Below are positions 1-8,707 of a DNA stretch of 64,000 bases, piece by piece. The translations under genes and the position numbers were made by a program. Origin of the DNA: an uncultured Nitrospiraceae bacterium (GTDB lineage Bacteria > Nitrospirota > Nitrospiria > Nitrospirales > Nitrospiraceae); assembly GCA_963730935.1 (NCBI GenBank), contig CAVSTP010000004.1, positions 1,504,001 through 1,568,000 on the forward strand, read 5' to 3'. A model generated the notes under the pieces. It saw only the letters and a program-made list of their open reading frames with translations, had not been told where the DNA came from and ran no database searches. Every line of letters starts with the position of its first letter. Position 1 is the stretch's first letter.

Positions 1-636
1 GAGGATCTCCGTCTTGCGCACTAACGCCGCGACGCAGCGGTCTTGTTCTTCGGCGCTGACGGCCCGGGCGATGACAAAGGCCAGGGCTTCCCGACTGTCG
101 TAAGACGCCTGTAACAGCCGAGAACGAAAATAGCCGAGACCGGCAGGATCCACCCAGGGATAATGTTGTTCCCAGGCGGTAATGCGCGTCGACAAGAGCG
201 CCGGCGCAAACAATTCGGTCAGCGAAGCGGCCACCGCTTCGACCAATGTCGCATCTCTCACGAGCGTCACATAGGCATCGCACGCAAAGCGCACGCCGGG
301 CAACACGAGAGACGGCATATCCGACAGGGTGCTGTCCGATATTCCAACCGCGTGTGCGAGCCGCCGCCAGAGGGTCAAGCCGCCTATTACCCATTCATCG
401 CCATCCTGATCATGGAGTCTTTGTGCCCACACACGACGGAACTCGGGGTCCTCTGACTTCGCGAGGATCAGGGCATCTTTGATGGGAATACGGGTTTGAT
501 AGTAATAGCGGTTCAACACCCATTGCTGGAGTTGGTGGGGTGTCAGTTTCCCCTCATGCATCAGCACATGGAACGGATGCTCGTGGTGATAGCGTTGCAA
601 TCCTTGATGCCGTAAGCGTTCTTCAAACGCGGTCAT
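1..636 (-). CDS. pqqC: Pyrroloquinoline-quinone synthase PqqC (3' end runs off the window)
   Basis: Not in the ORF track. Manual translation gives [32 protein letters not shown]...[17 protein letters not shown]...[13 protein letters not shown]...YFRSRL, which are typical PqqC motifs. The start overlaps the pqqB stop (ATGA). Confidence 0.95.
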
Positions 637-1550
637 AACACGAGCTCCATTCCATCGTACGCGACCTCCACCCCCGCTTGTTCTGTTTGGCACCGCTCAG
701 GTGAATCGTCCCGTAAAATAGGATTCGTATTGTTGATGTGGATCACAATCCGACGTGAGCGGGACTTCTCGAGCACTGACAGGCTGCCGTTGGACCCGGC
801 TAATGGCCAATGGGCCATATCACGCGCCTTCTTTTTGCCTATGCCGAGAGCGACCAATTCGTCGTCCGACCAAAACGTGCCATCGAACAAGAGACAATCG
901 GCGGTCTCCATGATTCGTTCAACTTCTGGATTGCTCGCACCGACGCAGGGGGCATAGCCGAGGCATGGTCCACCCGTCGTCTCGCTCATGAGCAGCGCGA
1001 TATTGTCTCCAAGCTGTGGCCCAACCTGGTCTTCCAAATAGAGCGGGACTTTTCCAGGAACGGGGATCGGGGTGACGACCAGTTGGCTTGATCGGTGGTC
1101 AGCGGTGAGCAGCGTGTGGTTTCCGTACAGTTTTAATTCATGCCAAGTCACCTGTCCCGAAGTCTGGTTCAGCGCACGATAGAAGCGGTTCTCAGCTGTG
1201 ACGGCTTGGCGTACTGGCTCAGTCGCATAGATCTGCAAGGGCTGGGATTCCCGAAGAGACAGTAGGCCAAGGCACTGGTCCAGATCGCCATTGGTCAAAA
1301 TGATGCCGGCGATGGGAGAGTCGCGCAGGGCCCGAGGATGCAAAGGAGGGAAGCCCGCCAATTGTGCGCTGATCTCCGGCGTGGCATGAATCAGAAACCA
1401 GTTGCCGTCGCTATCGCACAACGCAATGCACGCCTGTCTTCGCGGAGCGACGGCGATGGTGCCCGCGCGCAGGCCGGCGCAGTTCGGGCAGCCGCAGTTC
1501 CATTGCGGAAATCCACCGCCGGCTGCCGAGCCCAAGACATGAATTCGCAC
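633..1550 (-). CDS. pqqB: PQQ biosynthesis protein PqqB (metallo-beta-lactamase fold)
   Basis: Motifs [39 protein letters not shown] and VAYDGME; lies between pqqA and pqqC. Confidence 0.96.
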
Positions 1551-1556
1551 GCTGAG

Positions 1557-1706
1557 TCATGCCTCATTCGGAAGGGATAGAGGATCATCACCCGGCCGGA
1601 TGGCGTCTTCAGGCCTCGGAGCTCGCTCCTCGAAGTCGTCCTGATAGCCTCCGATTTCGGCGCTCATGTTGATCTCGGTATAGGCGGGTGTAGTCCAGGG
1701 AACCAT
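1557..1706 (-). CDS. pqqA: PqqA-like precursor peptide, 49 aa, with C-terminal extension
   Basis: MVPWTTPAYTEINMSAEIGGYQDDFEER...: WxxP leader and ExxxY core. GAGGAAGG RBS upstream of the ATG at 1706; immediately upstream of pqqB. Confidence 0.88.
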   Translation of the reverse strand: MVPWTTPAYTEINMSAEIGGYQDDFEERAPRPEDAIRPGDDPLSLPNEA

Positions 1707-1820
1707 AAAAACCTTCCTCGCTATCTCAGTGGGGTCGTACTGGGAGGTATCGTACGGCCACGTGATACCTAATGAAACCCAGCGAATCCCTAGGTGGGTT
1801 TCGGCTGGATAGGCCTTCCT

Positions 1821-2028
1821 GCTCACGCGAGGGGTAAAACCACAGTGCGGCGTCACTACTTGGCTCCGCAACTTGGTCCGTTCCAGACTGCGTCTGAACG
1901 AACCTTCGCACAGTGCGTCTCGCCATCGCCAAAAGGCGATCGCAGTGACAGCGCGCTGCCCCCCTCGCAAGTCGCAGGCAAGGCACTATCCACCTCGTGG
2001 GCAGAGGAAACAAGCGAGCTTGGAAGGG
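1821..2028 (-). repeat. Dispersed structured repeat, family A (copy 1), plus short motif C
   Basis: The reverse complement matches 32622-32795; the ~72-bp core 1859-1931 vs 32686-32758 has two mismatches by eye. Confidence 0.85.
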
Positions 2029-2180
2029 TCGCCGCGGGTCCTGTCGTCGATCCCAGCTCGTGCTCGCACCCCGCCCGGTGTAGGGATGCGCGAGCAAGCG
2101 ATCGCCGCCACCCGCAACGAGCAGTGAAGGGGTCAAAGGGCATGGTATCTAACTGCGGGCACCTCGTGACAAGCCGCGTC

Positions 2181-4883: not shown

Positions 4884-5170
4884 AATGAGCGCTGAAAATA
4901 CTCGTGTTTGTAGCCTCACTGCACTCGGAAAACCCCTAAATAAGTGTTACGTCGAGATTAAGAAAGTGTGGAGGGATGCAGCTGACCACAGCGGCGAACA
5001 AGTCTATGTACAAGGGCGCCAGGAGAAGACAGACTGTCAGAACTGACAGGCGACCTTTGAAGTTCAACTGTGGGATTATCGTTTCTTCTGAATTGATCCG
5101 ACAAACCGATCAACCGCACGAACTCCACGCAGTTCATTCCACGTATCTGGGACGAAACAGAGGTGACAAG

Positions 5171-6256
5171 ATGAAGGCGACGCAATTGCTACACAATCTC
5201 GGTCAGAGTCTCTGGCTCGACAACATTACCCGTGATCTGCTGACCAGCGGCACCTTGAAATCCTACATCGACGACCTGTCGGTGACCGGGCTCACCTCGA
5301 ATCCCACGATCTTCGACCATGCCATTAAAAACAGCGCCGCCTATGACGCGGCAATCAGTGAAAAGCTGAGCAAGGGCAAATCGGGAGAGATACTGTTTTA
5401 CGAGTTGGCAATGGACGACATCACCCGTGCGGCGGATCTCTTCCGACCGATTTACGACCGGACTGACGGCGTGGATGGCTGGGTCTCGCTGGAGGTCTCG
5501 CCGTTGCTGGCGCACGACACCTCGAAGACACTTGAGGCGGCCAAAGACCTCCAGGGACGGGCCGGACGGCCAAACCTGTTTATCAAGATCCCCGGAACGA
5601 AAGAGGGCTTGCCTGCCATCGAGGAGGCGATCTTTGCCGGCATTCCGATCAACGTCACGCTCCTCTTCTCCCGCGAGCAGTATCTGGCGGCGGCAGACGC
5701 CTTTCTGCGCGGCATCGAGCGGCGCATCGAGAAGGGACTCAACCCCAGCGTCCCCTCCGTGGCCTCACTCTTCATCAGTCGGTGGGATGCGGCGGTGGCA
5801 GGAACAGTCCCGGCCCCGCTGCAGAACCATCTCGGAATCGCGATGGCCAAGCGGACCTACAAGGCCTACAGGGAGCTGCTGGGCTCGAGCCGGTGGCAGC
5901 GTTCATTTAACGACGGCGCACGTCCCCAACGCCTGCTCTGGGCCAGTACGGGAACGAAAGATCCCAAGGCGTCGGATGTCCTGTATATCAAGTCCCTGGC
6001 TGCGCCGTTTACGGTGAATACGATGCCGGAGAATACCTTGAAAGCGCTCGCCGACCATGGCCAACTGGACACCATCCTGCCGGCCGACGGAGGCGATGCC
6101 GAATGGATCCTCGCGGAATTCGCAAACCTGGGCATCGACGTCGATGCGCTGGCAACTCGGCTTCAGGATGAAGGGGCGAAGTCGTTCGTGAAATCATGGG
6201 AAGAGCTCATGTCAGTGATCTCGTCCAAGAGCGCCGTGCTCAAAAAGGCCGGCTAG
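5171..6256 (+). CDS. tal: Transaldolase
   Basis: GQSLWLDNI, GLTSNPTIF, NLFIKIPGT, INVTLLFS and RLLWASTGTK; start placed at ATG 5171 after GAGG. Confidence 0.95.
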   Translation: MKATQLLHNLGQSLWLDNITRDLLTSGTLKSYIDDLSVTGLTSNPTIFDHAIKNSAAYDAAISEKLSKGKSGEILFYELAMDDITRAADLFRPIYDRTDGVDGWVSLEVSPLLAHDTSKTLEAAKDLQGRAGRPNLFIKIPGTKEGLPAIEEAIFAGIPINVTLLFSREQYLAAADAFLRGIERRIEKGLNPSVPSVASLFISRWDAAVAGTVPAPLQNHLGIAMAKRTYKAYRELLGSSRWQRSFNDGARPQRLLWASTGTKDPKASDVLYIKSLAAPFTVNTMPENTLKALADHGQLDTILPADGGDAEWILAEFANLGIDVDALATRLQDEGAKSFVKSWEELMSVISSKSAVLKKAG

Positions 6257-6292
6257 ACAGTCCGGTAGACGCGTGACAACAAAGGAGAGCTT

Positions 6293-7309
6293 ATGCAAAT
6301 CGGCATGATCGGGCTTGGAAGGATGGGCGCAAACATGGTGCGGCGGCTGCTGAAGGGCGGTCAACAGTGCATGGTCTTTGACCGATCGTCCAAGGCCGTG
6401 GAGGAATTGGTTCAAGAGAAAGCCATCGGGGCCAGTTCGCTAGCGGACTTAGTAAAGAAGTTGGACAAACCGCGGGCGGTCTGGCTGATGGTCCCGGCAG
6501 CCGTCGTGGACCAGACGATCGCCGACCTCCTGCCCCATCTTGAAGCGGAAGACATCCTCATCGACGGTGGAAACTCCTATTACGTGGACGATATCCGGCG
6601 CGCGAAGGAACTCGCCGCGAAGCGCATCGCCTACGTGGACGTCGGGACAAGCGGTGGTGTGTGGGGGTTGGAACGTGGTTACTGCATGATGATCGGCGGT
6701 CCGACGCCAGTGGTGCAGCGGCTCGATCGGATCTTCTCGACGCTGGCACCCGGCGCGGGTGACGTGCCGCGCACGCCCGGTCGGGAGAAATTGGGCGGCA
6801 CCGCCGAACAAGGCTATCTGCACTGCGGGCCGGCCGGCGCGGGCCATTTTGTGAAGATGGTCCACAATGGGATTGAGTACGGTCTGATGGCGGCCTACGC
6901 CGAGGGGCTGGGCATCTTGCGCAACGCCAACATCGGCAAACAACAACATACGATCGATGCGGAGACCACGCCGCTGCGCAACCCGGAACATTATCAGTAT
7001 GATTTCAATCTGCGCGATATTGCCGAGGTCTGGCGCCGCGGCAGCGTGATTGCCTCGTGGCTGCTGGATTTGACAGCCACCGGACTCGTGAAAGATTCCG
7101 ATCTTTCCCAATTTTCCGGCCGTGTCTCCGACTCCGGCGAAGGCCGATGGACCGTCAAGGCGGCGATCGACGAGGCCGTGCCGATCCCCGTCCTCTCTGC
7201 CGCGTTGTATCAGCGGTTCGCTTCCCGTGGCGAAGCCGAGTACGAGGATCGGGTCCTGTCAGCCATGCGCTACGGGTTCGGCGGGCATGTGGAAGTGAAG
7301 GGGAAATGA
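6293..7309 (+). CDS. gnd: 6-phosphogluconate dehydrogenase, decarboxylating (short type)
   Basis: GLGRMG, DGGNS, DVGTSGG and [23 protein letters not shown]. Confidence 0.95.
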
Positions 7310-7321
7310 CATGCGGGAAGG

Positions 7322-8707
7322 ATGTTGATGATGGACGATTCACACTCCGATGCGCTCGTCTTCTTCGGGGCCACGGGCGATCTGGCCTATAGGAAAATCT
7401 TTCCGTCCCTGCAGAGCCTGGTGAAACGGGGTCGCCTCGACGTGCCGGTCATCGGCGTCGCCAAAGCCGGCTGGACCCTGGAGCAGCTCCGCGCGCGGGC
7501 CCGCGAGAGTATCGAGAAGCACGGAGGCATCGATGCGGCGGCGTTCGAGAAGCTCAATAGATTGCTGCGGTATGTGGATGGCGACTACCGGGACCCCGCT
7601 ACCTTTGAGGCAATCCGCAAAGCGCTCAACGGGGCATCGCGGCCGACTCATTACTTGGCCATCCCGCCTGTGCTGTTCGAAACGGTCATCGACCAATTGG
7701 CGAAGGCGGGCGAGGCGCATGACGCGCGCGTGGTCGTCGAAAAGCCGTTCGGGACCGATCTTGACTCCGCCAAGGAGCTCAACGGCATTCTCTTGAAGAG
7801 CTTCGATGAAACCGCCATCTACCGCATCGATCATTACCTGGGCAAGCGCCCGGTGCACAACTTGCTCTTCTTCCGGTTCTCCAACACCTTCCTGGAGTCG
7901 TTTTGGAACCGCCACCTGGTGGAGAGCGTGCAGATCACCATGGCCGAGGACTTTGGGATCCAGGGCCGAGGCGCGTTCTATGACGGCACCGGCACGCTCC
8001 GCGACGTGGTCCAGAATCATCTCTTCCAGGTGCTGGCCTACCTGACCATGGAGCCTCCGGTCAAAACAGACAGCGAGTCGATCAGGGATGAAAAGGTCAA
8101 GATCCTCCGCGCGATTCCTCCCCTCGAGCCCGCGAACATCGTCCGCGGACAGTTTCGGGGTTATCGGCAGGAGAACGGCGTGGCCTCAGACTCGCAAATG
8201 GAAACGTTCGTCGCCCTACGCCTGCACATCAATTCGTGGCGCTGGCAAGGCGTCCCCTTCTACATCCGCGCCGGAAAAAATCTGCCGGTGACCTGCACGG
8301 AAATCATCGTCCGCTTGCGGCGGCCTCCGTCGGTGTTTGCGACATCCTCTTCTGCGCCGAATTATTTCCGTTTCAGGATCAGCCCGGAGGTGACCATCGC
8401 GTTCGGTACGACGGTCATGGACCGTGAGGAGAAGATGCTCGGACAAATGGTGGAAATGGTGGCGAGCCACTGGCCCGGCACTGAGGACACGGACGCGTAT
8501 GCCCGGGTCCTTGGAGACGCGATGGCCGGCGATGCCACGCTGTTTGCCCGGGAGGACTATGTGGAGGAAGCGTGGCGTATCGTCGATCCCGTCCTGAAGG
8601 CACAGACTCCAGTATACGAATACAATCCGAACACGTGGGGACCGAATGAGGTCAATCTGTTGGTGTCGCCGGCCGGAGGCTGGCAGGACCCTGTCATGAC
8701 CAGCTGA
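7322..8707 (+). CDS. zwf: Glucose-6-phosphate 1-dehydrogenase
   Basis: FGATGDLA, EKPFG, RIDHYLGK and RWQGVPFYIRAGK. Confidence 0.96.
   Translation: MLMMDDSHSDALVFFGATGDLAYRKIFPSLQSLVKRGRLDVPVIGVAKAGWTLEQLRARARESIEKHGGIDAAAFEKLNRLLRYVDGDYRDPATFEAIRKALNGASRPTHYLAIPPVLFETVIDQLAKAGEAHDARVVVEKPFGTDLDSAKELNGILLKSFDETAIYRIDHYLGKRPVHNLLFFRFSNTFLESFWNRHLVESVQITMAEDFGIQGRGAFYDGTGTLRDVVQNHLFQVLAYLTMEPPVKTDSESIRDEKVKILRAIPPLEPANIVRGQFRGYRQENGVASDSQMETFVALRLHINSWRWQGVPFYIRAGKNLPVTCTEIIVRLRRPPSVFATSSSAPNYFRFRISPEVTIAFGTTVMDREEKMLGQMVEMVASHWPGTEDTDAYARVLGDAMAGDATLFAREDYVEEAWRIVDPVLKAQTPVYEYNPNTWGPNEVNLLVSPAGGWQDPVMTS

Follow-up and report, generated by a model that had tools for sequence, protein, structure and literature searches.

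An intact pqqABCDE operon of an uncultured Nitrospiraceae bacterium encodes PqqB and PqqC proteins that have lost histidines found at the active sites of the model enzymes, and it probably makes ordinary PQQ through active sites in which these changes are tolerated or compensated. Continued production of the ordinary cofactor is likely because the changes are old, common to many relatives and independently arisen. The PQQ would likely serve a co-encoded dehydrogenase that is predicted to depend on both PQQ and lanthanides. The window, that is, the whole stretch of DNA analysed, is 64,000 nucleotides long (contig positions 1504001-1568000) and belongs to a 4.05 Mb genome that is 99.9% complete and whose nearest named homologues are Nitrospira proteins. 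The operon lies at the beginning of the window and continues beyond it (window positions unless the contig is named):

1557..1706, minus strand: pqqA, a precursor peptide of 49 aa with a W-x-x-P leader, an ExxxY core (EIGGY) and an acidic stretch added at the C terminus
633..1550, minus strand: pqqB, 305 aa with a GTG start, recognised by TIGR02108 (363.5, cut-off 245), alignment to 4Z5Y and column conservation
1..636, minus strand: pqqC, the first 212 of its 244 codons inside the window and its end at contig position 1503902 (TIGR02111 285.2, cut-off 240)
contig 1503939-1503661, minus strand, beyond the window: pqqD (TIGR03859 69.2, cut-off 46)
contig 1503654-1502569, minus strand, beyond the window: pqqE (NCBIfam 474.9, cut-off 381.35)
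contig 1502553-1501435, minus strand, beyond the window: gene for a PQQ six-bladed dehydrogenase (the client), a 372-aa beta-propeller (PF07995 66.1, cut-off 25)

The pqqA gene (1706-1557) had been overlooked in the initial annotation. Its product falls slightly below the family cut-offs (PF08042, 19.0 bits against 21.1; TIGR02107, 18.2 against 20), is a short precursor with the ExxxY element, and has a like peptide 5′ of pqqB in most related loci. The pqqB, pqqC, pqqD and pqqE genes are co-located and score above their family cut-offs, PqqD falling below that of a second model (NF002535, 56.8 against 101). Neighbouring genes from pqqA to the client gene overlap or lie about 20 bases apart at most, and each of them is single-copy in the genome. 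The pqqB and pqqC reading frames, which overlap at TTATGA, contain no stops or frameshifts, in keeping with the initial description of them as otherwise intact. No PqqF protease scores above the cut-off in the genome, which has two M16 matches far below the cut-off and four TldD/PmbA matches at other places; in known PQQ producers a dedicated protease, PqqF, is optional.

The search upstream of pqqA yielded neither a promoter-like site nor a match to Rfam. This region holds a non-coding dispersed repeat (window 1807-2030 and 2356-2465), the core of which (1860-1900) has 19 more copies of 81-256 bp at 66-86% identity, 11 of them in C4:1.38-1.54 Mb, as well as a direct repeat of 57 nt (2169-2225 and 2367-2423); the repeat region likewise has no Rfam match. 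A few kb upstream, at window 4976-8707, transaldolase-, 6-phosphogluconate-dehydrogenase- and glucose-6-phosphate-dehydrogenase-like ORFs, recognised by motif reading only, stand in a row that may be linked to sugar-acid use. An ORF for a WYL-domain-like regulator is found at contig C4:1491347-1492372, and a similar ORF adjoins the operon in locus L027.

The substituted positions are the following:

1275..1277, minus strand: PqqB Gln92 (CAG), aligned through the solved structure 4Z5Y to the His of the Asp-His pair (His93 of P. putida PqqB)
1386..1388, minus strand: PqqB His55 (CAT), which replaces the conserved Asn of NASPD and accompanies Gln92
1431..1433, minus strand: PqqB Ala40, the third position that tracks the 55/92 swap
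406..408, minus strand: PqqC Gln77 (CAG), in the context QRLHDQDG, aligned to Klebsiella His84 (K. pneumoniae PqqC, 1OTV)
193..195, minus strand: PqqC Leu148 (TTG), aligned to Klebsiella His154 (1OTV), with Met or Leu across the clade

The initial annotation had read His-to-Gln changes in both proteins, at codons 1277-1275 and 408-406, and the gap of a second PqqC histidine in the segment FAPALLSTR, and the CAG codons and the alignments to 4Z5Y and 1OTV bear it out on each count; it had overlooked the Asn55-to-His change of PqqB. Contigs, rather than raw reads, from four sequencing runs of four studies, one of which is possibly the source sample, show no difference at either Gln codon: DNA runs X2 and X5 and RNA-library run X15 cover both codons and RNA-library run X17 covers that of PqqB, the RNA-library contigs indicating presence and not level or strand. 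Because the contigs agree at the covered codons, sequencing error is ruled out. Nor is Gln there by chance, since it occupies the PqqB site in 20/58 Nitrospirales operons and the PqqC site in 20/58, and both CAG and CAA are used at each (12 and 8; 14 and 6).

Of 301 Nitrospiraceae genomes, 54 have a PqqC, a weak match in G080 being set aside, and their operons make up the 58-operon set together with those of three named loci and of a single genome from a different family. When residues 55 and 92 of PqqB and 84 of PqqC (Klebsiella numbering) are read together, 24 of the operons are Asn-His/His, 13 His-Gln/His, 12 Asn-His/Gln, seven His-Gln/Gln and one Gly-His/Gln, with one unreadable, and all four PqqB/PqqC His/Gln combinations are represented. 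On FastTree trees of 65 and 63 rows, with seven non-Nitrospira loci included, the PqqB swap needs one change (PqqB tree) or two (PqqE tree), and the PqqC His/Gln state needs a minimum of 10 on both, against a mean of 18 and a minimum of 13 for shuffled labels. Across five to six independent pairs the PqqB state almost never differs, which amounts to no coupling. The idea that the Asp-Gln variants of the two proteins co-occur as a clade is thus not borne out. Judged from these trees, the PqqB Gln92 is one old event, the two Gln substitutions arose separately as variants of particular lineages and not as one coordinated redesign, and this genome happens to combine the old swap in PqqB with one of the numerous changes at the PqqC site. 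Among 201 myxobacterial genomes sampled, five carry a true PqqC.

In the Klebsiella PqqC, His84 is, as we take it, the proposed acid, and His154, Tyr175 and Arg179 presumably constitute the O2 core. The H84N and H84A variants reportedly still form PQQ, several-fold more slowly, and H154N is said to yield no PQQ and to stall at quinoid/quinol intermediates, yet to oxidise PQQH2 with H2O2. Of the 21 pocket positions tabulated for the Nitrospirales proteins, 18 show no variation in the 57-58 readable sequences; the substrate-pocket Arg, Lys, Tyr and Glu residues and His24 are in place, and position 83 carries Asp in 57 sequences and Glu in one. The His154 site is occupied by Met in 54 and Leu in three of the 57 readable sequences (Leu148 in this genome), never by His, and by Met, Leu or Ile in 120/120 nearest homologues. 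Position 84 is His or Gln only in the 58 operons and the 120 homologues, Gln being present in 20/58 and 51/120 (Gln77 in this genome) but in just 1/27 His154-bearing Gammaproteobacteria. That gammaproteobacterial sample, counted without L132 (G566) and L144 (a duplicate of the genome of L039), has His154 in 27/27 and His84 in 26/27; the PqqC of L140 (G552) combines His154 with Ala-Gln at Asp83-His84. As His and Gln are the only residues seen and lie one base apart, position 84 may represent a kept hydrogen bond and not a kept acid. On the alignments, the clade-wide loss of His154 is the background on which His84-to-Gln changes are frequent, an association that is not independent evidence because the samples are separate clades.

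These patterns would also suit a PqqC that, lacking His154, cyclises AHQQ and stops at a quinol or PQQH2. The last oxidations would then fall to H2O2, to non-enzymatic chemistry, or to the client and the respiratory chain once the intermediate has been passed on, and the need for the His84 acid would be relaxed. The absence of His154 throughout the clade and its nearest homologues, the frequency of Gln at position 84 on that background, and the reported stalling of Klebsiella H154N, with its oxidation of PQQH2 by H2O2, are all in line with such a route. We nevertheless consider this, the strongest of the alternatives, unlikely: the Tyr175 and Arg179 equivalents, presumably the rest of the O2 core, are invariant, and no conserved oxidase or peroxide-forming gene emerged when the ORFs of 40 loci were clustered. 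Production of ordinary PQQ by PqqC itself, the reading that we prefer, has to accommodate the reported failure of H154N to make PQQ and the near-complete retention of both histidines in the gammaproteobacterial sample.

A histidine two residues upstream of Gln77 (His75), which the initial annotation had put forward as a possible rewiring, does not follow the substitution, occurring in 5/20 Gln and 7/38 His sequences of Nitrospirales. It was rejected as a compensator among the homologues too (33/51 Gln against 53/69 His; independent pairs p=1), as was His214, for which a raw association (18/20 Gln against 17/38 His) is gone in independent pairs. No replacement residue for His154 is common to all His154-less PqqCs, Arg49 being found in 64/66 and not in Streptomyces. 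Both Streptomyces loci compared (2/2) have Leu or Met in place of His154, and in Streptomyces griseofuscus the His154-less PqqC is part of a pqqACDEB block inside a polyketide (PKS) cluster with a PQQ-propeller gene. That cluster was matched, by gene order and accession series and not by sequence comparison, to the lankacidin cluster of S. rochei, where the pqq genes are called crucial for lankacidin (PMC3570484, in the text available). The literature search, thin on subscription journals and primary biochemistry, produced no account of these natural PqqB/PqqC variants and no characterised PQQ producer whose PqqC lacks both His84 and His154, and the available parts of PMC11951088, PMC11002830, PMC7296167 and 10.1101/2020.05.19.103440 contain nothing on these residues. 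In the accessible text of PMC2294125, PqqC His154 moves into the site upon binding, and the enzyme is product-inhibited and single-turnover in vitro; on account of the latter two properties, a lower rate of the chemical step might cost little.

The identity of the product points to PQQ itself because of the linkage and contact residues of the client, the canonical alcohol dehydrogenases that adjoin some of these operons and the lack of an extra tailoring enzyme. The client is present in 47/54 pqqC-positive versus 1/247 pqqC-negative Nitrospiraceae genomes, and is unlinked in a few. It has nine PQQ-contact residues, of which Arg51, His272, His299, Trp302, Asn303 and Arg341 were placed by HMMER alignment to 6JT5 and His143, Arg195 and Asn196 by motif; all nine occur in 23/24 full-length clients, four double-Gln genomes included, the 24th being cut by a stop. 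The contacts for three carboxylates and both quinone oxygens, which the nine residues bind in CcPDH (PMC6881789, in the text available), are kept in every state combination sampled. The client also carries an N-terminal signal-like peptide and the NGRD…D lanthanide motif (Asn214-Gly-Arg-Asp217…Asp226), the latter in 24/24. A purified homologue with this motif is described as binding PQQ and preferring La in the accessible portion of bioRxiv 10.64898/2026.07.10.737718, the main text of which, as available, never names Nitrospira and the supplements of which may list Nitrospirota. The client is accordingly annotated here as a predicted exported six-bladed, PQQ- and lanthanide-dependent periplasmic dehydrogenase. 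Two further GSDH-family genes were noted, a second in L021 (C5:7274-8156) that appears split into two frames and a third (C2:460076-461116) that is intact and has no NGRD motif.

In L029, which is of the His55/Gln92 type, and in G233, the gene immediately 5′ of the His154-less operon encodes a canonical eight-bladed alcohol dehydrogenase of the PQQ-dependent kind (TIGR03075, above cut-off). Eight-bladed quinoproteins were rejected as the main client for being too rare in the family: they occur in 9/301 Nitrospiraceae genomes at E≤1e-20, five of them above the cut-off, and none was found in this genome (G000). The clustering of ORFs from 40 loci gave no conserved extra tailoring enzyme and turned up one permease, the small ArsP_1-type gene (PF03773) that stands between pqqE and the dehydrogenase gene in many relatives (L025:4207-4707; L030:8038-8547), though not in G000, with a possible role in metal transport. 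The initial annotation had raised a PQQ variant or another product cross-linked between the Glu and Tyr of ExxxY, and such a product might be suspected from three histidines changed at once in this genome and from a precursor with an atypical acidic tail and scores slightly below the PqqA cut-offs. It is very unlikely in view of a canonical ExxxY precursor, changes that are uncoupled across 58 operons, clients with unaltered PQQ contacts, canonical quinoprotein alcohol dehydrogenases next to such operons and no conserved tailoring gene. The finding gives no indication of a new cofactor.

For PqqB we take Asp92, His93 and His269 to be the metal triad, His93 being one of three iron ligands. In MBL-fold enzymes generally, a motif-1 residue hydrogen-bonds the histidine at the 93 position. 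The Nitrospira protein retains Asp91 and His271 as the triad equivalents, with Gln92 for the histidine, as well as Asp223, His247, CxCxxC (Cys19, Cys21, Cys24) and Asn274, so that the structural Zn motif, CxCxxC plus Asn272 (PMC2294125, in the text available), is complete. Across 150 PqqB cluster representatives Asp91 is found in 146, Asp223 in 143, His247 in 141, His271 in 142 and His93 in 118; with one exception at most, the 120 near homologues have Asp91, Asp223 and His247. At the His93 site, 120 PqqBs of the acetic-acid-bacterium type have Thr (54), Ala (46), Ser (17) or another residue (3). The description of the substituted positions as normally conserved therefore holds for model Proteobacteria and lapses beyond them, His93 occurring in 118/150 representatives and in 0/120 of the acetic-acid-bacterium type. 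Since the Asp-His-His triad is missing from 31/149 readable representatives and from 120/120 acetic-acid-bacterium types, it is not family-defining.

Position 92 is closely tied to position 55. In the 58 Nitrospirales operons Gln92 occurs with His55 in 20/20 and Asn55 with His92 in 36/36, and residue 40 is Glu or Asp in all 36 of the latter and Thr, Ala or Ser in all 20 of the former. Among the 120 nearest homologues the 55/92 pairs are His/Gln in 97, Asn/His in 15, Asn/Gln in three, Gly/Gln in three, Gly/His in one and a gap in one, giving six Gln92 proteins without His55. In 145 readable representatives, residue 55 is other than Asn or Asp in 1/114 with His92 versus 10/31 without (Fisher p 5e-7, kin not being independent), and when 471 sequences are pooled in one alignment, columns 55 and 92 are mutual best mutual-information partners, at a rank (11 of 39,113 pairs) inflated by the richness of that alignment in Nitrospira. 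The specific pairing of His55 and Gln92 suggests a maintained site. The 55-92 contact and the metal geometry are inferred, a model of PqqB from its single sequence having too low a confidence (pLDDT 38.7) to be of use.

A PqqB without catalytic iron, acting as carrier or scaffold only while hydroxylation is supplied otherwise, might be suspected from the loss of a presumed iron ligand, and we think it highly improbable given that Asp91, Asp223, His247 and His271 are retained and that the 55/92 pairing speaks for a maintained site. A function as carrier has been proposed for the cavity next to H93 and H269 (PMC2294125, in the part available). His93-less PqqBs of the acetic-acid-bacterium type include ones named Gluconacetobacter diazotrophicus PA1 5, Acetobacter and Komagataeibacter, and PQQB_GLUOX (AAW60758.1), from the known producer Gluconobacter oxydans, has Ala at this site. 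The accessible texts report, by secondary citation, that the G. oxydans pqq operon is functional in E. coli (PMC11858353) and that pqqB overexpression in G. oxydans gives the largest PQQ gain (PMC7936290), and state that A. pasteurianus, whose own PqqB is outside the sequences compared, makes PQQ (PMC11858353, PMC7936290). Because these PqqBs are without CxCxxC, they may work differently and are no proof that the Nitrospira PqqB is active. Of the re-wired chemistry that the initial annotation had entertained, the PqqB Asn55His/His92Gln pair and the clade-wide loss of PqqC His154 remain, whereas coupled Gln changes and the upstream PqqC histidine fall away.

With pairs of dS >2 or <0.05 left out, NG86 dN/dS medians for the seven double-Gln operons are 0.19 for PqqB (18 pairs), 0.18 for PqqC (21), 0.18 for PqqE (17) and 0.15 for the client (6), within a range of 0.10-0.25, and those for the Asn-His/His group are 0.14, 0.14, 0.13 and 0.13, respectively; the slight rise is equal for PqqE and is seen at lower dS. 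The earlier suggestion of decay is rejected because the operon is intact, has dN/dS near 0.18 and is kept in 58 operons. A decaying operon, or codons that are assembly errors, is scarcely credible, since the slightly higher dN/dS of the double-Gln group has to be set against the freedom from stops and frameshifts, dN/dS values no higher than 0.25, the use of both Gln codons and the agreement among contigs of four runs, two of them RNA-library.

From the genes, residues, selection and linkage described above, the activities and geometry behind ordinary PQQ synthesis may be pictured as follows. PqqE and PqqD, whose genes are present and whose chemistry is that of the known pathway, would cross-link Glu to Tyr within the EIGGY peptide, and a general protease, perhaps encoded among the TldD/PmbA and M16 genes elsewhere in the absence of a PqqF above cut-off, would trim the product. 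PqqB would hydroxylate it, the near-invariant Asp91, Asp223 and His271 serving to bind the iron. The ligand at position 92 would be optional: here the amide oxygen of Gln would stand in for His, and His55 for Asn55 as its hydrogen-bond partner. In PqqC, ring closure and AHQQ oxidation would rely on the retained equivalents of His24, Arg50, Tyr53, Lys60, Arg80, Tyr128, Glu147, Arg157, Tyr175, Arg179 and Lys214, with Leu/Met154 providing a non-polar O2 pocket and Gln84 serving as a hydrogen-bond partner only, water being the proton donor, probably at a slower rate. The finished PQQ would be taken up as cofactor by the exported six-bladed enzyme.

What is known of how PqqB and PqqC work comes from few proteobacterial enzymes, and natural enzymes without His93, His84 and His154 offer a ready way of finding out which residues are needed for iron binding and for cofactor-free O2 activation. 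The pairing of operon and client in about a fifth of the sampled Nitrospiraceae points to a candidate periplasmic oxidation in nitrite oxidisers, and their co-distribution suggests lanthanide-dependent organic oxidation in these organisms. It is possible, if rather doubtful, that the implications reach further: a broadly distributed subfamily of PqqC (Nitrospirota, some Myxococcota, Gammaproteobacteria and Streptomyces) might finish PQQ without either Klebsiella catalytic His by another oxidant route, the Nitrospira PqqB might hold its iron in an Asp/Gln/His site rebuilt by the His55/Gln92 swap, and the supply of a lanthanide-dependent periplasmic dehydrogenase might give nitrite oxidisers an unrecognised organic-substrate metabolism.

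Set beside known systems, the Nitrospira PqqB resembles the solved proteins (P. putida 4Z5Y/6E13; M. extorquens 4Z7R; TIGR02108) in its fold-level sequence match (E 4e-78), its CxCxxC and its equivalents of Asp92, Asp221, His240, His269 and Asn272, and differs from them, both species being Asn55/His93, in having Gln at His93, His at Asn55 and a small residue at 40. It shares the missing His93 with acetic-acid-bacterium PqqB (PQQB_GLUOX) of PQQ-making organisms, which unlike it has Asn55, no CxCxxC and small residues rather than Gln. PqqC matches the Klebsiella PQQ synthase (EC 1.3.3.11; 1OTV/1OTW; TIGR02111) at 18/21 pocket positions, including the Tyr175, Arg157, Arg179, Glu147, His24 and Lys214 equivalents, and the Nitrospirales clade departs from it by Leu/Met at 154 throughout and Gln at 84 in about a third; the engineered Klebsiella H154S entry 3HML is likewise without His154, having Ser there. 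The client shows weak overall similarity to solved six-bladed structures (E about 1e-6), and has in common with the PQQ six-bladed (AA12-like) dehydrogenases, CcPDH 6JWF and the bacterial PQQ-6β-Ln cluster 4, the nine contacts, the NGRD…D motif and the signal-like peptide. As a whole, the operon is unlike the known pqqABCDE operons of Klebsiella pneumoniae, Pseudomonas putida, Methylorubrum extorquens and Gluconobacter oxydans in its 49-aa acidic-tailed precursor, in having no pqqF above cut-off and in the six-bladed, not eight-bladed, dehydrogenase next to it, and like them in the A-B-C-D-E set and order, the ExxxY precursor and B, C, D and E proteins above equivalog cut-offs.
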